64,000 nucleotides of DNA from a virus. Under the pieces are notes generated by a model. The model worked only from the letters and a program-made list of their open reading frames with translations. It ran no database searches and was not told the DNA's origin. Shown here in pieces: positions 16,490 to 64,000 of this stretch (position 1 is its first letter; each line of letters begins with the position of its first letter). The position numbers were made by a program, and so were the translations under genes. The stretch spans positions 25,960 to 89,959 of IMG/VR virus record IMGVR_UViG_3300020202_000066, one strand, 5' to 3'.

Positions 16490-16571
16490 TGGGGCCGTGC
16501 CGAATCGAACGGCCAAGCGCGGCGGCATCTGCTCTACAGGCAGACGGTGGATCCCACTCCCCAGCAGCCCC
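16490..16571 (-). tRNA. tRNA-Tyr(GTA)
   Basis: tctgc-ctGTAga-gcaga; long variable arm. Confidence 0.8.
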
Positions 16572-16582
16572 GGGAACCGAAG

Positions 16583-16657
16583 TACCGCCAGCGGGATTCG
16601 AACCCGCACTGTCACGACTCTCGATCGTGTGCCTCTGCCAGGTTGGGCTACGGCGGC
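16583..16657 (-). tRNA. tRNA-Leu(GAG), short variable loop, C33
   Basis: cacga-tcGAGag-tcgtg. Confidence 0.75.
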
Positions 16658-16664
16658 AAGAAAG

Positions 16665-16748
16665 TACCCGGGGTGGGAGTCGAACCCACAAATGGACTCG
16701 CGTCCGCTGGGTCTGAGCCAGCTGGCTATCCCGTTCGCCTACCCGGGC
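16665..16748 (-). tRNA. tRNA-Leu(CAG)
   Basis: gctgg-ctCAGac-ccagc. Confidence 0.85.
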
Positions 16749-16764
16749 AAGATGAACCGCACCA

Positions 16765-16837
16765 TGCCGACCCGCGGGATCGCACCGCGTTCTCCCGCTC
16801 TTCAGGCGGGCGTGAGGACTACCTTCACCAGATCGGC
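16765..16837 (-). tRNA. tRNA-Phe(GAA)
   Basis: cccgc-ctGAAga-gcggg; TGC T-loop. Confidence 0.8.
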
Positions 16838-16848
16838 GAGAGATCGCG

Positions 16849-16922
16849 TGCCCGCCCCGGGATTCGAACCCGGAACCTTCCGCTTTTGAGACGGATGCCT
16901 CTACCGGTTGGACCAGGCGGGC
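16849..16922 (-). tRNA. tRNA-Leu(CAA), short variable loop
   Basis: tccgt-ctCAAaa-gcgga. Confidence 0.85.
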
Positions 16923-16927
16923 GAGAG

Positions 16928-16998
16928 CAGGCCCTGACGGATTCGAACCGCCACCCGACGGGTTGGAGCCGTCGATGCTGCCGTTACACCAAGGACCT
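16928..16998 (-). tRNA. tRNA-Trp(CCA)
   Basis: gacgg-ctCCAac-ccgtc. Confidence 0.9.
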
Positions 16999-17014
16999 GA
17001 GTGGGGAGTGCAGC

Positions 17015-17090
17015 TGGCTCCGGGAGCAGGGATCGAACCTGCGGCGGACCGGTTAACAGCCGGCTGCTCTGCCAACTGAGCTATCCCGGA
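17015..17090 (-). tRNA. tRNA-Asn(GTT)
   Basis: Canonical cloverleaf with encoded CCA. Confidence 0.92.
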
Positions 17091-17096
17091 GCGAGC

Positions 17097-17168
17097 TGGT
17101 TGCGGGCCCGGGTGTCGATCCCGGCATTCCAGGCTTATGAGGCCCGGCTGATCGCCGAATCGCCCGCA
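17097..17168 (-). tRNA. tRNA-Met(CAT), initiator-like, reduced D-arm
   Basis: ccgggc-ctCATaa-gcctgg; ends cccgcaacca. Confidence 0.75.
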
Positions 17169-17187
17169 ACGAGTTAGGGCTGGGCCG

Positions 17188-17364
17188 TCAGGCCCCGGGA
17201 TTGAGAAGGCGCAGAAGGCACCAGGCCCATGCGGGCCCGGTAAAGAGGGGGAGCCGCCACAAGTGCGGCCGTGCAGCGGGATAACGCCGAGGGACGGACG
17301 TGGTGGTCGGGAGCGCAGCACCGACCGCGGGCGCTGCCGGGCGGATCGAATGCTGTCCAGTCAT
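17188..17364 (-). promoter_or_regulatory. Putative leader ORF (58 aa) for the Met/Asn/Trp/Leu/Phe/Tyr tRNA sub-cluster
   Basis: GAGGAG RBS; 3' half contains TAT, TTG, TGGx3, CTC/CTT, TTT, CTG, AAT. Confidence 0.65.
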
Positions 17365-17435
17365 CGGTGGCTCCTCGGGGCACGTCAGGCCCTCGGGGTC
17401 GACGTAGGATCCGACGGCGGCGGTGGGTGCAATAA

Positions 17436-17506
17436 AGGCCCCAGAGAGAATCGAACTCTCGCCACCGGGTTACAAAGCCGGCGCTCGACCTTCGAGCTAT
17501 GAGGCC
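17436..17506 (-). tRNA. tRNA-Thr(TGT), imperfect stems
   Basis: ttTGTaa loop; T-arm gagag-ttcgatt-ctctc. Confidence 0.7.
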
Positions 17507-17510
17507 GAAG

Positions 17511-17582
17511 AGCCCTGACGGCGGATCGAACGCCGGTCTGCTGCTTACGAAACAGCCATCCTACCAACTGGACGATCAGGGC
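17511..17582 (-). tRNA. tRNA-Thr(CGT)
   Basis: gctgt-ttCGTaa-gcagc. Confidence 0.88.
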
Positions 17583-17585
17583 TGA

Positions 17586-17657
17586 AGCTCTCGCCGGGGG
17601 TCGAACCCGGGTTTCGGTCTTACCAAGACCGCGTGCTACCAGCTGCACCACGGGAGC
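17586..17657 (-). tRNA. tRNA-Thr(GGT)
   Basis: cggtc-ttGGTaa-gaccg. Confidence 0.88.
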
Positions 17658-17661
17658 GGAG

Positions 17662-17733
17662 TGCGGGTCGAGCGAGTCGAACGCTCTCATCCAGTTTGGA
17701 AGACTGGCATGCAACCACCAACATCTGGCCCGC
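17662..17733 (-). tRNA. tRNA-Gly(TCC)
   Basis: ccagt-ctTCCaa-actgg. Confidence 0.85.
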
Positions 17734-17743
17734 ATGAAACTGA

Positions 17744-17816
17744 AGTGCCCGGCGGGGCTCGAACCCGCGACCTCCTCGTTGGCAACGAGGCGTTCCGCCA
17801 ACCGAACTCCGAGCAC
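17744..17816 (-). tRNA. tRNA-Gly(GCC)
   Basis: cctcg-ttGCCaa-cgagg. Confidence 0.85.
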
Positions 17817-17820
17817 AGGA

Positions 17821-17893
17821 TGTGGCGAGAGGGAGTCGAACCCTCGTGACCGGATTCACAGCCCGGCGCCTGTACCGCTCGGCCATCGCCACC
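17821..17893 (-). tRNA. tRNA-His(GTG)
   Basis: ccggg-ctGTGaa-tccgg; G-1 encoded. Confidence 0.88.
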
Positions 17894-17911
17894 ACGATCA
17901 GCACTCGAACC

Positions 17912-17988
17912 TGGCGAACATGATGGGACTCGCACCCACTTTCTCCGGCGTGACGGGCCGGCGTCTCGACTGCTTCGACCTCATGTCC
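17912..17988 (-). tRNA. tRNA-Asp(GTC), C33
   Basis: ccggc-ccGTCac-gccgg; encoded CCA. Confidence 0.8.
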
Positions 17989-17992
17989 GTAG

Positions 17993-18066
17993 TTCGCCCG
18001 GAGGGACTCGAACCCCCGAAATGGCTGGGTGTAGGCCAGCTGCCTTTGCCGCTTGGCGACGGGCGA
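17993..18066 (-). tRNA. tRNA-Val(TAC), C33
   Basis: gctgg-ccTACac-ccagc. Confidence 0.82.
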
Positions 18067-18071
18067 ATGGA

Positions 18072-18142
18072 TGGAGCTCCAGGGAATCGAACCCTGATCT
18101 GCCGGGTGCAAGCCGACCGTCCTCCCGTTGAACGAGAGCCCC
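18072..18142 (-). tRNA. tRNA-Ala(TGC)
   Basis: GGGGC 5' end, G3:U70, ctTGCac loop. Confidence 0.88.
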
Positions 18143-18143
18143 A

Positions 18144-18183
18144 GAAAGAGAAACCCCCGGGCCAGGTGAGTGGTCCGGGGGCC
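18144..18183 (-). terminator. Intrinsic terminator (attenuator) immediately 5' of tRNA-Ala
   Basis: cccccggacc-loop-ggcccggggg then tttctctttct. Confidence 0.85.
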
Positions 18184-18206
18184 TTGAGCGCGCTCTTCAG
18201 TTCGCG

Positions 18207-18284
18207 CTACAGGGCGGACCACCCGCCGGCATCGACGCCGGCCGCGTGTGCGGTCGTCCCTGTGTGCACAGTGAAGAGCAGCAT
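18207..18284 (-). promoter_or_regulatory. Leader peptide MLLFTVHTGTTAHAAGVDAGGWSAL
   Basis: gatAGGAGacgaccATG; rich in T/V/H/G/A/D codons; gggtggtccg can pair with terminator arm cggaccactc. Confidence 0.8.
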
Positions 18285-18323
18285 GGTCGTCTCCTATCAC
18301 GGTCGTGGCTATCGCGGTGCAAG

Positions 18324-18395
18324 TCCTCGCGGAGAGATTCGAACTCCCAGCCGTCTGGTTCGAAGCCAGCCGCTCTTCCGCTGAGCTACGCGAGG
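18324..18395 (-). tRNA. tRNA-Arg(TCG)
   Basis: ctgg-ctTCGaa-ccag. Confidence 0.85.
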
Positions 18396-18399
18396 ATGA

Positions 18400-18472
18400 T
18401 GTACCCGGCAAGGCTCGAACTTGCGGCCGCCCTGGTAGGAACAGGGTGCTCCTCCGACTGAGCTACGGATGC
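18400..18472 (-). tRNA. tRNA-Arg(CCT)
   Basis: ccctg-ttCCTac-caggg. Confidence 0.85.
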
Positions 18473-18491
18473 AGGAGCCACACACGGGAAC

Positions 18492-18569
18492 TGGTCTGCG
18501 CGGAGGGACTCGAACCCCCGGTCTCCTGCTCCCAAGGCAGGCGCTTTCGCCAGGCTAAGCTACGCGCAG
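18492..18569 (-). tRNA. tRNA-Pro(TGG)
   Basis: cctgc-ctTGGga-gcagg; encoded CCA. Confidence 0.9.
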
Positions 18570-18572
18570 AGA

Positions 18573-18643
18573 TGCACCCACGTGGAATCGAACCACGGGC
18601 TCGGTCTTCGGAGGACCGCATCCTTCCTCTGGACGATGGGTGC
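18573..18643 (-). tRNA. tRNA-Arg(CCG)
   Basis: cggtc-ctCCGaa-gaccg. Confidence 0.88.
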
Positions 18644-18647
18644 TGCT

Positions 18648-18718
18648 TGGTGCCTCTGTCGGGAGTCGAACCCGATGGGCAGCCTTCGCAGGGCTGCCTC
18701 CAATCCCCTGGCAGAAGC
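18648..18718 (-). tRNA. tRNA-Arg(GCG), reduced D-arm
   Basis: cagcc-ctGCGaa-ggctg; encoded CCA. Confidence 0.72.
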
Positions 18719-18725
18719 ACGGAAG

Positions 18726-18797
18726 TAGGCCGTCGTGGTGCTGCCCCACGCTCCTCCGACTTATAAGGTCGGCGCTCTGCTGATGAGCTAACGGCCC
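18726..18797 (-). tRNA. tRNA-Ile(TAT)
   Basis: ccgac-ctTATaa-gtcgg; atypical T-loop ggcagca. Confidence 0.8.
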
Positions 18798-18818
18798 AGA
18801 TGGCCGGGAAGCGTGGAG

Positions 18819-18905
18819 CTATATACGCCGTCGGGGAGACGGCACCGGGGGTGGGCAGAATGGTCGCCTCGGGGCGAAGCTGGTGAGTGCGATGTGGGCG
18901 ACCAT
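18819..18905 (-). promoter_or_regulatory. Putative leader peptide MVAHIALTSFAPRRPFCPPPVPSPRRRI
   Basis: Contains AGG, CGA, CCA/CCG and ends CGA CGG CGT ATA TAG, matching the six downstream tRNAs. Confidence 0.7.
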
Positions 18906-18946
18906 GGTCCAGCGTAGCGCGCACGCGCGGTGGCTGGTGCAGATGA

Positions 18947-19033
18947 CGGAGAGCCAGAGACTCGAACTCTGACGCGGTGAACCGCCCGCCGGGTAGCAAC
19001 CGGGGCCCGATACCAGTTACGGGATAGCTCTCC
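18947..19033 (-). tRNA. tRNA-Ser(GCT)
   Basis: GGAGAG 5' end, ttGCTac loop, long variable arm. Confidence 0.88.
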
Positions 19034-19041
19034 AGGAACAG

Positions 19042-19122
19042 AGGAGGGCGGAGGTGTCGATCCCCGAGCCCGAAGGCCCCACCGTTTTCAAGACGGCTTG
19101 CCGCGCCGGCGGCGCGCCCTCC
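19042..19122 (-). tRNA. tRNA-Ser(TGA)
   Basis: gccgt-ctTGAaa-acggt, long variable arm. Confidence 0.8.
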
Positions 19123-19136
19123 AGGAACAACACCAG

Positions 19137-19206
19137 AACGCTGGCCGGGAATCGAACCCGGGCCGGTACCTTTGCAGGGCACCTCCGCGCCACGCGAATC
19201 CAGCGC
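19137..19206 (-). tRNA. tRNA-Cys(GCA)
   Basis: gtgcc-ctGCAaa-ggtac; U73. Confidence 0.8.
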
Positions 19207-19246
19207 AAAGAGAAAGCCCCCGGCGGTCCTGTGACTGCCGGGGGCT
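19207..19246 (-). terminator. Intrinsic terminator (attenuator) immediately 5' of tRNA-Cys
   Basis: agcccccggcagtc-loop-gaccgccgggggct then ttctcttt. Confidence 0.85.
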
Positions 19247-19264
19247 CTCGATCCTGCGTCGTCG

Positions 19265-19333
19265 TCAGGGCGTCGAGACTCCCGGCCAGCCGGCGCCGCG
19301 GGAACTCGACGAACAGGTGACGATGCGGATCAT
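19265..19333 (-). promoter_or_regulatory. Leader peptide MIRIVTCSSSSRGAGWPGVSTP
   Basis: gatAGGAGcagaccATG; TGT TCG TCG AGT TCC control codons; antiterminator complementarity. Confidence 0.8.
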
Positions 19334-19409
19334 GGTCTGCTCCTATCCGCGTCGGGACGCGGTGGGTGCACGCTCGGGCGATCGAAGGAGGTTCACGGGG
19401 GGGAAGAGG

Positions 19410-19712
19410 CTAGACGCCGACGGAGACGACCTTTCCCAGGATCGCGGTCCGCTTGACCCAACCGTTGATGCGGCCGATGTTGTTCCCGATGAGAGCTCGG
19501 TCTCCCTGCAGCTGCTTGACCAGATGCAAGAGGAATCCTCCACGCCAGCGGACGAACACCGCGTCTCCGACCGCTACGGCCATGGGATCGACCGGCGCGA
19601 TGGTCACGAGCTCGCCGCTCTCGATCCGGCCGCGCATCGACCCCCCGAGCGGACGAACCTTCGCGACTCGACCAGCAGAGATCTCCCGCAGCGCATCCGA
19701 TGCCCAGCCCAT
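19410..19712 (-). CDS. Peptidase S24/S26-like domain protein inside the tRNA array
   Basis: G.SM...I..GE.V..P..GD.V...LH.V motif. Confidence 0.65.
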   Translation of the reverse strand: MGWASDALREISAGRVAKVRPLGGSMRGRIESGELVTIAPVDPMAVAVGDAVFVRWRGGFLLHLVKQLQGDRALIGNNIGRINGWVKRTAILGKVVSVGV

Positions 19713-19801
19713 CGCCTGACTCCTCCGGCGACCTTCGTGCGGCCGCCACCGATGCCGGGCGAGTAGGTCGCGCGCTGCGATTCGGGTGCGCGGATCTCGA
19801 G

Positions 19802-19887
19802 AGGACCGGAAGGGGATCGAACCCTTCGTGCGCCTCGCGGCGCGACGGCTTAAAAGGCCGCTGCCGACACCAGTCGGCCACCGGTCC
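19802..19887 (-). tRNA. tRNA-Lys(TTT) with long variable arm
   Basis: gcggc-ctTTTaa-gccgt; variable hairpin gcgcc-gcga-ggcgc. Confidence 0.75.
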
Positions 19888-19889
19888 GA

Positions 19890-19960
19890 TACCCCCGCCA
19901 GGAATTGCACCTGGGTCTCCACGTCATCAGCGTGGCATCCTGCTGTTGAACGACGGGGAT
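19890..19960 (-). tRNA. tRNA-Ile(GAT), G37
   Basis: ccacg-ctGATga-cgtgg. Confidence 0.8.
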
Positions 19961-19965
19961 GCGGA

Positions 19966-20037
19966 TGAACCCGCCGGGATTCGCACCCGGATGCCCGGAT
20001 TAAGAGTCCGGTCCGTTGCTGTTACGGTCACGGGTCC
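19966..20037 (-). tRNA. tRNA-Lys(CTT)
   Basis: ccgga-ctCTTaa-tccgg. Confidence 0.85.
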
Positions 20038-20049
20038 AGAGGAGGGGAG

Positions 20050-20122
20050 CAGCTCCTGATCGTGTCGAGCGATCACCTTCCGGGTCAAAGCCGGACGTGC
20101 AGAGCCGCTACACCAAGCAGCC
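20050..20122 (-). tRNA. tRNA-Gln(TTG)
   Basis: tccgg-ctTTGac-ccgga. Confidence 0.75.
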
Positions 20123-20131
20123 GGGGGAGAG

Positions 20132-20202
20132 CAGCCGCCCAGGGAATCGAACCCCGACCCTCTCGGTCAGAACGAGGTGTGCTGCCACTACACCCGGCGG
20201 CT
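20132..20202 (-). tRNA. tRNA-Gln(CTG)
   Basis: ctcg-ttCTGac-cgag. Confidence 0.82.
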
Positions 20203-20397
20203 TCGGAATTGATCCAGCTGGTTGACGGTGGGGCGGTGAAGCGAGAGCAGCGCCTCACTCTTACCCGCCGAGCGCCCTCGGCAGACCCCTCCGCCGACCA
20301 GCTACGCCTGGCGTTGCTGGATGGGTTTGGCCCGTCCGGGCCCGGGAATGCCGGCACCCGCGACGGGCCGACGCTTGAGCAGGAAGGAGCGGAGGAG

Positions 20398-20470
20398 TAG
20401 CCCGCCAGGGACTCGAACCCTGCTTTCCTGGCTGAGAACCAGGTGTCCTGGCCGGATAGACGAGCGGGCC
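20398..20470 (-). tRNA. tRNA-Glu(CTC)
   Basis: cctgg-ttCTCag-ccagg. Confidence 0.9.
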
Positions 20471-20476
20471 ATGAGA

Positions 20477-20548
20477 TAGCCCGCCGGAGACTCGAACTCC
20501 GCTTCCCCGTTTGAAGGACGGGGGACTTCACCCATAGTCGAGCGGGCC
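20477..20548 (-). tRNA. tRNA-Glu(TTC), C33
   Basis: cccgt-ccTTCaa-acggg. Confidence 0.85.
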
Positions 20549-20674
20549 GCGAGGAACGCGAGAAGGGCCCCGAGGGGCCGGCGTTCGAGCGGACCGGTGA
20601 GCGAGGGTGAGGAGTGCATGCGCCGGCATAGCGCTGCCCGGCCGGCGCGGGTGCATGTCGAGGACGACTGCGAG

Positions 20675-20941
20675 CTACTGGCCCGTCGACGTCGGATGCG
20701 GAGGCGGGTTGGTTTCGAGGTGCTCGAGCAGCGCGCGTACTGCGCAATCCTTCGACTCGATCAGCTTCCTGAGCGCCACGGTGCGCTCCGCGCTGCCGGG
20801 GAGCATCTGGACGAGCTGGTGAGCTAGCACGCAGTACGGCTCGCTGGCCTTCTGCAAGAAGAACGGCAGGTGCGCGAAGCGGAAGAACTTCAGCAGGGGC
20901 TCGGGGGGCGGTGCCGCGGGGACTTCGGTCGTGTCGGTCAT
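20675..20941 (-). CDS. Small helical phage protein (possible Acb2/Tad1-like hairpin)
   Basis: FF.F.HLP..LQ..S...LP..AERTVALRKL.E.KDCAVRA; GAGGAG RBS. Confidence 0.6.
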   Translation of the reverse strand: MTDTTEVPAAPPPEPLLKFFRFAHLPFFLQKASEPYCVLAHQLVQMLPGSAERTVALRKLIESKDCAVRALLEHLETNPPPHPTSTGQ

Positions 20942-24260: not shown

Positions 24261-25208
24261 TCACCCGGACCGGAGCCCCGGCAGCCGGCACCGGGGGCAG
24301 ACCTCGTACAAGCGGGCGTCTTTGCACACTGCGCAGGGCAGCTTGAGCGTGTCGCACTCCTGCCGGTACCGCAGCGCACAGGGATCGCAGAGCTCGAATT
24401 CGTCGGGCACCGAGGTCCTGAGGTCCATCGATGCGCAGGCGGCACAGAGGTGACTCGTGCATGCCTCCACCGCGAGCGCTTCCTCCGCACGGTTCGGCCG
24501 CGGCCGGGGGACCTCCCACCCCTTGCCGCACTTCTCGCAGCCGACCTGCCTGCGCTGGAAGCCGATGGAGGGTCCGTCGACGAGCTTGTGGCGGATCACG
24601 GCCGCCGCGGCGGTGGGTGGATCGTTCGGCTGCGCGGACTCCTCGACAGGGGGCAACGGATCGGTGGAGCTCCGAGGAATTTTGGGGGAGTCCTCCGCCG
24701 CGGGCGGACAGCGAGGGGGGCGACCGGCCTGGTCGAGGGGCTCGTACACGACCACCCGGACGTCGGGGAGCCCGGCGAAGGCGCGCTCGATCAGGGGGCG
24801 GACGTCGGACCAGGCGAGCCCGCCCAAGCCGCAGCCCAGTGCGGGGATGGCGATCGATGGGATGCTCCGCTCCTTCACCTCACGGACCAGCGCGGCCAGC
24901 CCGGTCTCGATGTAAGCCAGAGTGCTCTTGCCGGTCCAGCGCCGCTTCGTCGGGAAGTTGATGATGAGGGAGCGGGGCCCGAGTCGACCCAGGTCGAACA
25001 CGAACAGGCGGCCCGGGTAAACGTCGCCGCGGTCGCACGCTGCGACGTAAGCCTTGAAGTTCTCTGGATACGCGGCTTTGAACTTGGCGGCGAGGCCCGC
25101 TCCCATCACGCCGAGGCAGTTCACGGGGTTGACCAAGGCCACGACGTCGGCCCAGAGAATGTCGCCTGTGTTGAACTCGATGTGGGACGGGCTGGGCTGG
25201 ATGTTCAA
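24261..25208 (-). CDS. Macrodomain (DarG-like ADP-ribosyl hydrolase) with C-terminal Cys-rich region
   Basis: GDI..LVNPVNC.GVMGAGLA, IINFPTK..W, SIAIPALGCGLGGL.W. Confidence 0.88.
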   Translation of the reverse strand: MNIQPSPSHIEFNTGDILWADVVALVNPVNCLGVMGAGLAAKFKAAYPENFKAYVAACDRGDVYPGRLFVFDLGRLGPRSLIINFPTKRRWTGKSTLAYIETGLAALVREVKERSIPSIAIPALGCGLGGLAWSDVRPLIERAFAGLPDVRVVVYEPLDQAGRPPRCPPAAEDSPKIPRSSTDPLPPVEESAQPNDPPTAAAAVIRHKLVDGPSIGFQRRQVGCEKCGKGWEVPRPRPNRAEEALAVEACTSHLCAACASMDLRTSVPDEFELCDPCALRYRQECDTLKLPCAVCKDARLYEVCPRCRLPGLRSG

Positions 25209-25277
25209 GCGGCACGACCTTTCGGGACGGGACTGGAGCCAGGGAGACCACCCGGCACCGTAGCCGCTCCGTGAAGT

Positions 25278-25844
25278 TCAGTCGACCTCGATCGCGGCGC
25301 GCAGCGTCACCCGCGCCCGACGCAGGGCCGACCGGTGCGCCCCCGAGTGAACTCCCGTCGCCGCGGTGATCTCCCGTTCCTGGTGGCGCTGGATCGGCCC
25401 GAGAATGACGGCGGTCCGCTGCTTCTTCGGCAGCATGTTGATCTTCGCCACCAACCGGGAGAGCACGTCCCGTACCTCGACGGCGATCTCCGGTCCCCGC
25501 TCCGGCCGGTCCGGCGGCTGCACACCCACAGCATCCAGGCTCTCGCACGTGGTCTGCGCAAGGCGCCGGGCCTGCCGCCGGTACCGCATCGACCGGATCA
25601 TCGCGGTGTTCAGCGCCACGCGGTAGAGCCAGGATGAGAAGAGGCTCCGGTGCTGGAACGAGGGGAGAGAGCGGTGGACCTGCAGCCACACGTCCTGCAC
25701 GGCGTCCTCGAGCTCGAACTCAACCACGTACCGTGTGCAGGCTCGCCGGACGAGCGCGACGTGACGGCGGTACAGGGACGCGAAGGCGTCGTGGTCTCCG
25801 GCTGCGGCGAGAGCGACGGCATCGTGGTCCGGGTCGGGCGTCAC
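25278..25844 (-). CDS. ECF-type RNA polymerase sigma factor
   Basis: GD.DAF..LY.RH, EDAVQDVWL, FSSWLYRVALN, region-4 HTH. Confidence 0.88.
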   Translation of the reverse strand: MTPDPDHDAVALAAAGDHDAFASLYRRHVALVRRACTRYVVEFELEDAVQDVWLQVHRSLPSFQHRSLFSSWLYRVALNTAMIRSMRYRRQARRLAQTTCESLDAVGVQPPDRPERGPEIAVEVRDVLSRLVAKINMLPKKQRTAVILGPIQRHQEREITAATGVHSGAHRSALRRARVTLRAAIEVD

Positions 25845-59494: not shown

Positions 59495-60079
59495 TCAGGC
59501 GGGGAAGGTTACGACGCCCTGAGCGACGAGCGTCTTGAGAATTAGCGCCGCTCCGACTTGTTTGGAAATCGCTGTCGGAGACCAGACGTTGTCCTTGATG
59601 AACTTGCCCCGCCGGTACTGATCGCTGAAGGACCAGAGGTATGCGGTGGCCACGCCTCGCTTCCGGCTGCCGAAGCCGTTGAATGCCTCAAGCTTGTAGA
59701 GGCAGCCAGGCAGTGACCAGTCCTTCCAGCGGTGGAGCCCGTCGTATTGCACAGCATCGACGGCGCTGAACTCCCAATCGAAGGGAGGCGTTCCACGTGG
59801 CGGCCGGCCCGCTGGTTTGCGGTGGGTTCGGCGCGCCAGTGAGTCGCCGTTGTGGAGATGCTTCGTCCAACTCGAGTTGCACTCCAAGTTGTGGATGATC
59901 CCGATCAGCCACCACGGCACGCCGGTCTGATCTGCCACTCGCTCGTACCGGGCCCTCCCTGCCTTGACCGCATCCGCGGCCTCGCTGACCGCCGGGATCC
60001 TGCTCTTGGTGATGACCGCAGATGTGAAGCGCCTGTTGTACTCCGCCCTGAGCTGGTCATTGAGCTTCGGTGCGCTCAA
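59495..60079 (-). CDS. Lysozyme-like endolysin
   Basis: RY..V...GVPWW.IG.IH..E, HNGD, LE.FNGFG, YLWS. Confidence 0.8.
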   Translation of the reverse strand: MSAPKLNDQLRAEYNRRFTSAVITKSRIPAVSEAADAVKAGRARYERVADQTGVPWWLIGIIHNLECNSSWTKHLHNGDSLARRTHRKPAGRPPRGTPPFDWEFSAVDAVQYDGLHRWKDWSLPGCLYKLEAFNGFGSRKRGVATAYLWSFSDQYRRGKFIKDNVWSPTAISKQVGAALILKTLVAQGVVTFPA

Positions 60080-60481
60080 GCGTACACCTCCACGGAGTAG
60101 TCGCGGTCGGGACGCAGCCCGTGCTGGTATAGCCTGTTCTCGATCAGGGCTCGGAAGGCGTCGGACCCTACTGCGAAGGTCACGGCTCGCTCCAGCGTGT
60201 CCGCCCAGTAGAACGGGCGGCACGTCTTCCAGAAGTCCTCAGCCGAGGACCAGATATCCGAGACCGCAGAGCGAAGCGTCGCTGCGTGCGACTCCTTCAC
60301 GGTGAAGCGCCAGAAGCTAGATCCAGGCACTGCTACCTCCGAAAGAGAGGCCCGCCGGCCGGGGGTTGGGGGATGGGAGGTGGCCGGCGGGCCGATGAAA
60401 TCCGACGAGAGGCGAGGAGGTTGACCACTGGTTCGCAGTCGAACCCTAGGCGCGACGGGGAGGCGAGTCAAACGATGCCGG

Positions 60482-61027
60482 GTGGAGGTGGGCAGGCCAG
60501 TTTCGCAGAAAGATCAGGTCACACACGTGCTACGCTCGCACAAGAGAAAGCCCGCCGGGTGGCTCCGGCGGGCTGAGGCACGATGCGATTCCTGGAGGTC
60601 TCGCGTGCGAAGCATAGTAGCTGTAGACGACTCCGGTCAAGTGACCGAGCCGCCCGAGTACGTGAAGGACAACACGGAGCGGTGGGCAATGCGCCGTGAG
60701 TACATCCACCGCATGATCCGGAACCTCAGCGGTAGCGAGCTGAAGGTCTTCATGGCCCTGAGTAGCTTTGCTCACCAGCCCAAACCGGGCGAGGACGAGG
60801 AGAGCTGTTTCGCCGGCCAAGCGAAGATCGCCCATCGGGCTGGGGTTTCGGCCCGGCAGGTTCGGCGGGCCCTCAAGACTCTGGAGGATGCCGGATGGAT
60901 TCATCGCCGCCGAAGGGGTATGGGCCGATCGAACTACTACTGGTTCTCTATCCCCAGCGCTCGCTCGTTCTTCGAGCGCTTCATCTTCTGGGACGAGGCC
61001 AAGGTCGCGTCAAAATGCGGCGGCTGA
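60482..61027 (+). CDS. Winged-HTH replication-initiator-like protein (start uncertain)
   Basis: CF.GQ..IA...GVS.RQVRRAL..LE..GWI.R.RR...SNYY. Confidence 0.7.
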   Translation: MEVGRPVSQKDQVTHVLRSHKRKPAGWLRRAEARCDSWRSRVRSIVAVDDSGQVTEPPEYVKDNTERWAMRREYIHRMIRNLSGSELKVFMALSSFAHQPKPGEDEESCFAGQAKIAHRAGVSARQVRRALKTLEDAGWIHRRRRGMGRSNYYWFSIPSARSFFERFIFWDEAKVASKCGG

Positions 61028-61091
61028 GAGGACACCCATGTCCGCTCAGGAGAGGACACCCATGTCCGCTCAGGAGAGGACAGGGGTGTCC
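61026..61091 (+). repeat. 24-bp tandem repeats (~2.7 copies), iteron-like
   Basis: gagaggacacccatgtccgctcag; each has GGACA-N4-TGTCC. Confidence 0.8.
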
Positions 61092-61227
61092 TACAGAACT
61101 CAGATCTACCAGGGAACTCCTATCCAGATGAAAGGTCTAGCGTCGCACACGCTAGACGATTGAGCGTTAGAAGATTCCGCATCCGGAGGACCGAGAGCAG
61201 CTACCAGGTCGGCTATGCTCACCTCGT

Positions 61228-61298
61228 GCCTCCGTGGGCCAGTGGCTGGCCAGTCGGCTTCAAACCGATGCAGGCCGGTTCGATCCCGGCCGGGGGCG
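61228..61298 (+). tRNA. tRNA with UCA anticodon (opal suppressor-like)
   Basis: gcctccg/cgggggc acceptor, ggcca/tggcc D-stem, gtcgg-ctTCAaa-ccgat, gccgg-ttcgatc-ccggc; TATGCT -10-like box just upstream. Confidence 0.85.
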
Positions 61299-61312
61299 CA
61301 TAGGAGGTCCCC

Positions 61313-61663
61313 ATGGTCTTCACGTGAATCTCCGATCCCGCCTATGTGTACGTCCTAGTGCGCTCTGACCTCACGGTTCCGCAGCAGGCAGTGCAGTCTG
61401 CCCATGCCGTGCTTGAGGCATCCCGCCAAGGCCTGATCCCCGCAGGCATCGATCACCCGAATCTCGTCCTCTGCCACGTGTCCGGGTTCACCCAGCTTCT
61501 CGATGAGGCGGAAAATCTCCGCGCGCTGGGAGTTCAGCTGGCCGTCTTCAACGACTCGGATCACAAGTTCCCATCCACCGCTCTCGCAACGGAGCCGATC
61601 CGCGGCGACCGCCGCCGACTCTTCAAACGGTTTAGGCTTCTCAAGGAGGCCATCCATGCCTAG
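61313..61663 (+). CDS. Peptidyl-tRNA hydrolase 2-like protein with in-frame TGA at codon 5
   Basis: AGGAGG RBS then ATG GTC TTC ACG TGA; YV.VRSDL..Q.AVQS.HA...TALATEP...F..F.LL. Confidence 0.75.
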
Positions 61664-62126
61664 CGCCCAGCCCATCGAACAGCAGCCCGTCACCCATCGC
61701 AGCCGCTGGGGATTCCATCCCTGCAGCCATGCCACCTTCCTGAAGTTGAAGGCGCTCAAGAAGGCGTACTGGGAGGCAGTGCGCGGACTGGCGCGGTGGA
61801 TCCGCTGGAACAGGAAGCTGCCAGCGAACCAGGTGCGAACCGAGATCATCCGAGACACCCAGGGGCGTCCGTGCGGCCGGCGTGTGCTCGGCCCGATCCC
61901 GGAGCCGATCTACTGCCCGGTGTTCGGTCGCGTGACGAAGCTCAACCCGTCCCGGACGGTGCCGGGCCAGCTGGCGGACTACAAGATCGACGAGGCCGTA
62001 GCGATTGCTCGCCGGCCGACCGAGGAGCCGTTCGAGAAGCCACTGCCGATCTCCGAGGCGTTCATCGATGAGCTGTACGATCGGCTCGTGGAGTGGGAGA
62101 GACTGCCGAAGATCAGCGCCGAGTAG
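61656..62126 (+). CDS. Hypothetical phage protein
   Basis: AGGAGG RBS; SRWGFHPC motif. Confidence 0.6.
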   Translation: MPSAQPIEQQPVTHRSRWGFHPCSHATFLKLKALKKAYWEAVRGLARWIRWNRKLPANQVRTEIIRDTQGRPCGRRVLGPIPEPIYCPVFGRVTKLNPSRTVPGQLADYKIDEAVAIARRPTEEPFEKPLPISEAFIDELYDRLVEWERLPKISAE

Positions 62127-62165
62127 AAAGGAAGAGAACGCGCGGTGGCGGCGGCCGGACCGATG

Positions 62166-62759
62166 CTACTTGGTTGTAGCACGGCCGGCCGGGTGAGGAG
62201 CTGAAGCGGCCTCTGTATGGCCCCCCTCTACATTGAGCTGATCGGCGAGATCTCCCAGAGTCCGATCGCCTCGCCAGGTGCAGGCAAAATCGCCGAACAG
62301 CTCTGCAGCTTTCCGACGGTAGGCTTCGTGCGCTTCGATCTCAGTTGAATACGTTCCCAGGCAGAGTGTTTTTCGACGAATCGCAATCTGGGCCATGAAG
62401 CCTCTGCCGTTCTTGCGCACTCCCTTGAGGAACTTCCCGTGTCCCTTCATGTTCCATGCCTGCTGCTGGTGCGTGGCAATTCGTAGATTGGCTATGCGGT
62501 TGTCGTCGCGGATTCCATTGATGTGGTCCACTTCATCGGAGGGCCACTCTCCGTAGTGCAGGATCCACGCGAGTCGGTGGGCGCGGTAGAGCCGACCATT
62601 GACTTTGATTGCGAGATATCCTTTGGTGTCGAGGGATCCCGCAGCGGTGCCCGCGTACCGTGTGTTCCAGGTCCGGCAAACTCCGGCGCGGTATAGCCAG
62701 TAGATGACACCGGTCGATGCGTCGTAGCGTAGAAGCGCTCGCAAGGCCTCGGCGTCCAT
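62166..62759 (-). CDS. HNH homing endonuclease with AP2-like domain
   Basis: YRAHRLAW, VDHING.RDDNRI.NLR, LG.Y.T..EA..AY. Confidence 0.9.
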   Translation of the reverse strand: MDAEALRALLRYDASTGVIYWLYRAGVCRTWNTRYAGTAAGSLDTKGYLAIKVNGRLYRAHRLAWILHYGEWPSDEVDHINGIRDDNRIANLRIATHQQQAWNMKGHGKFLKGVRKNGRGFMAQIAIRRKTLCLGTYSTEIEAHEAYRRKAAELFGDFACTWRGDRTLGDLADQLNVEGGHTEAASAPHPAGRATTK

Positions 62760-63292
62760 CAGCGGAGAGGCTCCGAGTGTGCGAGATGGGTCTTGATGTT
62801 CTCGGCGTATACTGCCGCGATCGCGGTGTCGCGAAGAATGATGAGATTCTCGGCGTTGCGAACTTCCGCCGACTGCGTGAAGTTGTAACTTCCTGTGGAC
62901 ACGATCCCGCCGTCGATGACGATGACCTTGTTGTGCGCGATGGCGTGCTTTGAATCGATCCATACAGGAACGTTTCCGGCTCGGACAGTCCGCGACCTGG
63001 ACTTGGGACCACGCTGCGACCGATCGACGACAACACGCACATCCACCCCCCTGGTCCGTGCCGCTACGAGGGCTGAGGCGATCGGCGCTGACGTGAAGCT
63101 GTAGGCCTGGAGCAGGATACTTCTCCGCGCTCGAGTGATCAGACGCACGATCGCTTCTTGGCAGCCGCCACGTGGCGAGAAGTGAACCTCTACTGCGGGC
63201 GACTCCGGAGGGACGTACCCGCTGGGCGGAAGGGCGCTGGCCGTGCCGGCGAGCATTACCAGGAGCAGTAAGGATCGGCAGCGCATGACCAC
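62759..63292 (-). CDS. Phospholipase-D family (Nuc-like) endonuclease with signal peptide
   Basis: FSPRGG, AYSFTS, HNKVIVID, TGSYNFT, NAEN. Confidence 0.9.
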   Translation of the reverse strand: MVMRCRSLLLLVMLAGTASALPPSGYVPPESPAVEVHFSPRGGCQEAIVRLITRARRSILLQAYSFTSAPIASALVAARTRGVDVRVVVDRSQRGPKSRSRTVRAGNVPVWIDSKHAIAHNKVIVIDGGIVSTGSYNFTQSAEVRNAENLIILRDTAIAAVYAENIKTHLAHSEPLR

Positions 63293-63323
63293 CTCTCTTC
63301 GTGGAAGTCGTTGGGCCCGAACC

Positions 63324-63755
63324 TTACTCGCGACTATTGACCGCCCTCATCTTGAGCGCTTCCGGTCGACGGAGGCCCTTCCAGGACTTGCCCCGCTTCA
63401 ACCTCGAAACCACGTCAAAAGCCACATCGAGAAGGCCTGCGACATCCACGATTCGCTTCCCCGCCGCAAGCAAGGCCAGCGCCTGGCGGGCTTGGCTCTC
63501 GGTGAGCTTGGGGATGCCTCGCCGTCCGCTGCGAGTCCATACGCCCTTCTTGAGATGGTTCGCGGAAATCTCGCGCTGGAGGCACCCGCAGGACCGGGTT
63601 TCCCCGCGACGCATGTCGCGGCCGCGCACCATCACCTCGGTTCCGCAGTCGCAGACGGCTCGCCATTTCGTGGGGCGGCTACCCGGGACACGGGCGATCG
63701 CACATAGCCGGCCGAACTTCCAACCGGCGAGGTCGATGAGCCTACTGCCGGGCAT
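63324..63755 (-). CDS. Homing-endonuclease-associated DNA-binding protein
   Basis: DL.G.KFGRL, CDCG, T.SCGC, C-terminal HTH. Confidence 0.65.
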   Translation of the reverse strand: MPGSRLIDLAGWKFGRLCAIARVPGSRPTKWRAVCDCGTEVMVRGRDMRRGETRSCGCLQREISANHLKKGVWTRSGRRGIPKLTESQARQALALLAAGKRIVDVAGLLDVAFDVVSRLKRGKSWKGLRRPEALKMRAVNSRE

Positions 63756-64000
63756 TGCCGCTCAGCGCGGGCCGGCCATCGCGACGAGTCTGTGGATCGA
63801 GCCGATGGGCAGCTGATCGACCGACTGCTTTCCGGACTGCCTGCCTCCCGGGACAACGCACTGGCGACACTCCACCTCGCAGCCAGGGAACGCACCCTTC
63901 CGCCACACCATCGAGTGGCCACAGGTCAGCGACGCGACCTTGAACGCGCCCGGCGGCAGCTCCTGAACGTGCACCTTAACTCCCGTCATCATTCCTCCGT

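Follow-up and report, generated by a model that had tools for sequence, protein, structure and literature searches.

The window analysed here comprises the last 64 kb (64,000 nucleotides) of an 89,959-bp single-contig virus record (IMGVR_UViG_3300020202_000066), which is classed by IMG/VR as linear and estimated by CheckV to be about 72% complete. The DNA, from a soil phage, has a GC content of about 65% and encodes a terminase, a portal and a head protease, as well as an array of 29 tRNA genes at 16490-20548. A lone thirtieth tRNA gene is found far from this array, directly in front of a small gene interrupted by an early stop codon, and the locus is organized as follows, with all features on the + strand:

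61228-61299 (+), tRNA with anticodon UCA (opal suppressor type), with discriminator G at 61298 and no encoded CCA
61302-61307 (+), Shine-Dalgarno (SD) sequence AGGAGG, 2 nt after the tRNA and 5 nt before the ATG
61313-61324 (+), leader codons ATG GTC TTC ACG (M-V-F-T)
61325-61327 (+), in-frame TGA at codon 5 (the 'gate'), followed by A
61328-61345 (+), linker codons I-S-D-P-A-Y
61346-61663 (+), Pth2-like domain, 105 codons from GTG 61346 and then the stop TAG at 61661-61663; the GTG is a possible ungated start without an SD
61656-62126 (+), basic partner gene (156 aa), with an ATG that overlaps the end of the Pth2-like gene

The tRNA was placed at 61228-61299 by ARAGORN and scored 50.7 bits (E 4e-09) with the Rfam tRNA model RF00005 over its full length (1-71). 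The tRNA is 72 nt long and ends 13 nt before the ATG, with a 7-bp acceptor stem, a 4-nt variable loop and an anticodon loop reading C-U-UCA-A-A. A comparison with 166 tRNAs from related loci (see below) showed that it is closest to the CUA suppressors of the related cassettes and that the 16 most similar are all suppressors, the best being the CUA tRNA of locus L026 at 72% identity, while a blastn search of the tRNA against a collection of cultured phages gave no match. The frame opened by ATG 61313 stays open, apart from the TGA, through GTG 61346 to the terminal TAG. The 18 nt preceding the GTG contain no GGAG, GAGG or AGGA. The earlier note, which described a UCA tRNA followed by a UGA-interrupted Pth2-like gene with no comparable ribosome-binding site at the downstream GTG, was thus correct in its observation, except that the AGGAGG lies one base to the left of the place it implied. 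The layout is rare: an SD, an ATG, at most 10 codons, a stop and then at least 60 open coding-like codons were found at two TGA sites, no TAG site and no TAA site on both strands of the whole 89,959-bp record. The second TGA site (L171), which lies outside the window, precedes a DUF6283 gene that has its own GTG start behind an SD-like stretch, and was not accepted as a further client of the tRNA.

On its own, the window protein matched Pfam PTH2 (PF01981) only weakly (E 0.0056, 17.3 bits), below the 23-bit gathering cut-off, and a six-frame PF01981 search of the record missed the gene, as expected from this score. The assignment holds at the family level. The protein belongs to a large family, with 622 cluster representatives matching at E<=1e-3, and 23 of 27 aligned relatives matched PTH2 at E<=0.01. 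The family profile found solved Pth2 chains, 24bt_A at E 3.4e-05 and 2zv3_A at E 0.0019. The R-x-D-L and Q-x-x-H-A motifs and the overall length align with solved chains of the Pth2 peptidyl-tRNA hydrolases (PDB 24bt, 2zv3, 1rzw, 1q7s). The family is nonetheless very divergent, and in the alignment to 2zv3_A the G-K stretch before the Q-x-x-H-A motif aligns with P-Q-Q in the phage protein. We refer to the protein as Pth2-like; its fold was not modelled, hydrolysis of peptidyl-tRNA was not assayed, and we make no claim regarding Pth2 catalytic residues. The gene that follows encodes a basic protein with an S-R-W-G-F-H-P-C motif and gave no Pfam, PHROG or NCBIfam hit. A search of the Atlas gave no usable feature hit, and its structural matches all had TM values of 0.40 or less on a poor model. 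Homologues of this partner lie downstream on the same strand in 61 of 160 other loci and in 5 of 7 loci from GTDB genomes, and in three loci (L089, L105 and L123) the partner is fused in frame with the Pth2-like domain. Binding between the two proteins was not examined.

The earlier note had named a sequencing error or a unique mutation as findings that would overturn its reading, and the TGA proved to be neither. Contigs from three public soil-metagenome runs were compared with 60900-62100. One run may be the source of this DNA, but a second, from another sample and study, holds a 427-nt contig identical over 61206-61632, which covers the tRNA, the leader, the TGA and most of the domain, and a third covers 61065-61299 without differences. 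All of these are DNA contigs, and no RNA data set was listed for the stretch. The phage also uses the standard code. A crude codon-usage gene call gave 108 genes, ending in TGA (69), TAG (34) and TAA (5), making TGA the main terminator. Only three places have a TGA flanked on both sides by at least 40 coding-like codons in the same frame. One of these joins two separate families (a sigma-factor-like gene followed by a macro-domain or phosphatase gene) and two have no hits, and the three thus give no evidence of read-through. No RF-1-domain or class-Ib (Trp/Tyr family) tRNA synthetase gene was found in the 90 kb of the record.

To explore whether the arrangement is conserved, we retrieved 80 loci from IMG/VR, 80 from metagenomes and 7 from GTDB genomes that encode relatives of the protein (loci are numbered with the prefix L). 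After removal of identical copies, 146 loci including the window remained from the first two sets, and the equivalent position is a stop in 79 of these, spanning 31-71% GC. These 79 fit a strict definition of a gated locus: an SD-like motif, an ATG, a leader of 2-12 codons, an in-frame stop, at most 20 codons to the domain, and no ATG in between. The window fits with a 4-codon leader, TGA and 6 codons to the GTG. A further 11 loci fit except for an ATG after the stop. Among the 79, a TAG gate is paired with a tRNA-CUA in 38 loci, a TGA gate with a tRNA-UCA in 2 (the window and L016), and a TAA gate with a tRNA-UUA in 1 (L110). No suppressor was seen in the retrieved DNA of 37 TAG-gated loci, many of which are short contigs of 1-2 kb, or in one TGA-gated locus (L093), a 1.9-kb contig; complete contigs of the 37 were not searched. 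No locus pairs a gate with only a non-matching suppressor, and stop and anticodon thus match in 41 of 41 loci, an outcome expected from random pairing 1 time in 31,980. When counted by clusters at 70% identity, 30 of 30 with a suppressor match. L058, one of the loci with an ATG after the gate, is a further TGA/UCA pair, although non-TAG cases with a tRNA in view are still few (three strict cases plus L058). All 7 GTDB-genome loci, which include Gemmataceae, Planctomycetia, Phycisphaerales and Pirellulaceae metagenome-assembled genomes, carry an ATG leader followed by TAG, and 6 of the 7 hold a tRNA-CUA.

The nearest relatives of every non-TAG locus are TAG-gated: that of the window is L085 at 50.5% identity, that of L016 is L021, and L110 (TAA/UUA) is 84% identical to L105 (TAG/CUA). 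The gate codon has therefore switched several times, and in three of the four strict non-TAG loci a matching suppressor is in view. In 56 of the 79 gated loci, no ATG, GTG or TTG lies between the stop and the third residue of the domain. The residue just before the position equivalent to the window's GTG is Y in 53 and H in 19 of the 79, and this stretch therefore looks translated in the family. The last leader codon is most often ACG (30 of 79), the last two leader residues are most often F-T (15 of 79), and a purine follows the stop in 76 of 79, and the window conforms to all three. In contrast, only 1 of the phage's 69 ordinary TGA stops is preceded by ACG. A second in-frame TAG occurs inside the domain of about 24 relatives, but clusters in a variable loop (window residues 31-35) and not at a conserved Gln, and so does not tell which amino acid is inserted. 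The local coding density of 39 long gated loci had a median of 0.82 under code 11 and 0.86 with the gate codon read as sense, and this crude test gives no sign of heavy recoding around the cassette.

Relatives of the protein were found by tblastn in 14 records of cultured phages, among them XacN1 (44.8% identity), Xoo-sp13, RaK2 and K64-1. In XacN1 and Xoo-sp13, the annotated gene is preceded, four codons upstream and in frame, by SD-ATG-AAG-TAG and SD-ATG-AAG-AAG-TAG, respectively. XacN1 is a standard-code jumbo phage with many tRNA genes and two CUA suppressor tRNAs, and its authors report that in-silico read-through of 18 amber stops revealed no target and that the targets of the suppressors are unknown (PMC5852040). 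The window represents the UGA version of this arrangement in a 90-kb, 65% GC phage.

The combined results suggest that the locus is the opal (UGA/UCA) form of a conserved phage cassette, composed of a suppressor tRNA gene, a small Pth2-like gene locked by an early in-frame stop that matches the anticodon of the tRNA, and a basic partner gene. In this model, to which we assign a probability of roughly 0.7, ribosomes load at the strong AGGAGG/ATG and reach UGA at codon 5, where either RF2 releases a 4-residue peptide or the phage tRNA inserts an amino acid and translation continues into the domain. Output of the Pth2-like protein, and by coupling through the overlapping start probably of the partner, would then follow how well the tRNA competes with termination. 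The tRNA and the mRNA are probably one transcript, as only 2 nt separate the tRNA from the SD and no promoter-like site was seen on the + strand in 60400-62400 in a scan limited to sigma-70-type promoters. While the anatomy of the locus, its conservation and the co-variation of stop and anticodon are directly supported by the sequences, it is by inference that we take the tRNA to be made and charged, the protein to hydrolyze peptidyl- or aminoacyl-tRNA, and the lock to serve a given purpose. Aminoacylation, the absence of which the earlier note had listed as refuting, was not tested. Our guess for the inserted residue is Trp, based on the identity elements C35, A36 and G73, and because a tRNA with U34 would also read UGG.

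The main alternative is that the protein starts at GTG 61346, either directly or by re-initiation after the 4-codon mini-ORF, which would merely deliver ribosomes and make the position of the tRNA coincidental to expression. Such a start had also been named in the earlier note as a point against its reading, and a low level of ungated initiation cannot be excluded for this window. The GTG is in frame, 23 of the 79 gated relatives likewise have a GTG or TTG, and 33 of 155 database homologues begin exactly at this position, although gene callers cannot read through stops and the database entry of the window protein is itself called from the GTG. Distant relatives (for example L056, L061-L063, L068 and L074) have ordinary ATG starts and still keep a tRNA-CUA just downstream. 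However, the GTG lacks an SD, most gated relatives have no possible start there, the conserved Y or H lies upstream of it, and the co-variation of stop and anticodon is unexplained by this reading, which we consider unlikely. A single in-frame stop is the usual mark of a pseudogene, but a nonsense mutation or assembly error is very unlikely given the identical contig from a second study, the stop in 79 of 146 loci and the intact domain downstream.

A genome-wide use of TGA as a sense codon (as in codes 4 or 25) is similarly improbable. Recoded phages with suppressor tRNAs have been described (Borges et al., bioRxiv 10.1101/2021.08.26.457843), and with about 72% of the genome in the record, other UGA-containing genes could exist, but TGA ends most of the called genes and no supported in-frame TGA was found elsewhere. 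Least likely is selenocysteine insertion. The 'SeC' label given to the tRNA by ARAGORN rests on the anticodon only, the short variable loop and 7-bp acceptor stem do not fit the long variable arm and extended acceptor of tRNA-Sec, no SECIS-type Rfam match at E<=1 lies in 60000-64000, and relatives use TAG or TAA at the same site. What weighs against the main model itself is that TGA ends 64% of the called genes, and an efficient UGA suppressor should thus be costly, yet we found no excess of back-up stops behind TGA-ended genes compared with other genes. We also considered whether a 12-nt inverted repeat (61112-61123 with 61300-61311) would bury the SD until the tRNA is cut out. Duplex energies between the region upstream of the tRNA and the SD region were not better than shuffles in 11 loci with the same layout (mean z -0.43; in the window 0.17 of shuffles were as good), and the fold of 61100-61345 had a z of -0.96, and the idea was rejected.

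The interpretation offered in the earlier note is partly supported. Its core, that full-length protein from the strong ribosome-binding site requires the adjacent tRNA to decode UGA, is strongly supported by comparison with relatives, whereas its further proposal of a stop-codon sensor analogous to prfB autoregulation is a resemblance in logic only. In both cases, an early in-frame UGA makes the yield depend on competition at that codon, but prfB passes the UGA by a +1 frameshift and its product, RF2, is the factor that reads UGA. Here the domain lies in the 0 frame with ATG 61313, passage needs a dedicated tRNA, and the +1 frame, as read by eye, meets a stop within about 11 codons. Nothing shows that the Pth2-like protein acts on UGA decoding, and feedback by the product was not assayed. 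In the recoded phages of Borges et al., a phage tRNA with a stop-reading anticodon likewise allows genes with in-frame stops to be translated in a standard-code host, and these authors also propose regulation of gene expression. There, many genes, mostly late ones, carry in-frame stops and the stop is largely given up as a terminator, while here one small gene next to the tRNA carries the stop at a fixed early position. A resemblance in form is seen to lambda bar-type minigenes, ORFs of 2-5 codons with a strong SD that release peptidyl-tRNA and burden Pth, since without read-through the product is a very short peptidyl-tRNA and the gene behind it is a Pth-like enzyme, although there is no evidence here for drop-off or toxicity.

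Nonsense suppression by phage tRNAs and gene control by recoding are both known, but literature searches on suppressor tRNAs together with peptidyl-tRNA hydrolase or PTH2 and phages found no paper describing this cassette. The main text of the Borges et al. preprint has no occurrence of 'hydrolase' or 'Pth', and a 2026 jumbo-phage survey has none of 'peptidyl' or 'hydrolase', with supplementary files, including Table S2 of the preprint and the XacN1 tRNA tables, not covered.

Two readings of why this gene is locked fit the data, and neither was tested: the enzyme may be needed only when read-through happens, to clear its by-products, or it may limit the suppressor. One weak hint is that the structural block uses TGA as a stop less often than the remaining genes (13 of 30 against 56 of 78; Fisher p 0.0076, crude gene calls), but expression-linked stop bias would explain this as well. 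Our preferred purpose is to tie a clean-up or limiting enzyme to the level of read-through. A bolder and doubtful version is that the cassette is a self-measuring governor of nonsense suppression, in which the Pth2-like enzyme, with its basic partner, acts on the acylated or peptidyl form of the suppressor tRNA itself, or on ribosomes that ran through stops. As the enzyme is made only by read-through, suppression would be held at a low set-point. This would explain how a phage whose genes mostly end in TGA can afford a UGA-reading tRNA, and why the stop sits within the first few codons, where release factors are reported from work on minigenes to function poorly. If so, the 'orphan' suppressor tRNAs of standard-code phages are parts of a feedback circuit and not steps towards recoding.

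Suppressor tRNAs in phages that use the standard code have had no known target. A conserved, cis-linked gene whose stop codon changes in step with the anticodon of the tRNA gives these tRNAs a concrete client, and is a natural example of translation gated by a dedicated tRNA, in a module small enough for direct testing and carried in its amber form by the cultured phages XacN1 and Xoo-sp13. The independent switches of the gate codon amount to natural compensatory-mutation experiments. The opal case described here is the hardest one for the idea, because TGA is the main stop codon of this phage, and it therefore sharpens the question of how read-through is kept local or low.

The DNA in and around the cassette holds the following features, in window positions:

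61026-61092, three direct repeats spaced 24 nt apart
60482-61027, HTH_36 / replication-initiator-like gene
61656-62126, gene for a basic 156-aa protein of no known family
62166-62963 and 63324-63755 (- strand), two HNH-endonuclease-type genes
62759-63292 (- strand), PLD-like nuclease gene

The three direct repeats comprise two exact 24-mers and a 78% copy, and show dyad symmetry. They start at the last two bases of the stop codon of the HTH_36 / replication-initiator-like gene, and look like iterons or operators. The basic 156-aa protein is a conserved downstream partner of the Pth2-like gene, found in 61 of 160 loci, and is fused in frame with the Pth2-like domain in three loci. The two HNH-endonuclease-type genes and the PLD-like nuclease gene cluster just downstream of the cassette.

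Stop-codon usage was compared between the structural gene block (30961-60300, - strand) and the remainder of the called genes. In the structural block 13 of 30 called genes end in TGA, against 56 of 78 elsewhere (Fisher p 0.0076), although the gene calls underlying this comparison are crude. At 24264-25844 (- strand), a sigma-factor-like gene and a macro-domain or phosphatase gene lie in one frame separated by a TGA. The PHROG hits are to two separate families, and the stretch was thus read as two genes. Outside the window, at genome positions 20495-20920 (296-721 of the fetched locus, L171), a DUF6283 gene is preceded, in frame, by an SD-ATG, 8 codons (the ATG included) and then TGA. This gene also has its own GTG behind an SD-like G-rich stretch, making an ordinary start likelier. 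The tRNA array of the window (16490-20548) was found by ARAGORN to contain 29 tRNAs covering 19 amino acids, with no tRNA-Asp.

In both cultured jumbo phages, XacN1 and Xoo-sp13 (loci L001 and L002), the relative is the C-terminal domain of a protein of about 280 aa. Its annotated ATG is preceded, four codons upstream and in frame, by SD-ATG-AAG(-AAG)-TAG (locus positions 946-963). Among cellular genomes, the closest carriers of the cassette are Planctomycetota MAGs (Gemmataceae, Planctomycetia, Phycisphaerales and Pirellulaceae), represented by the GTDB genome contigs L164-L168, of which L164 lies on a 1.64-Mb contig at 65% GC. The host of the window phage may be a planctomycete.
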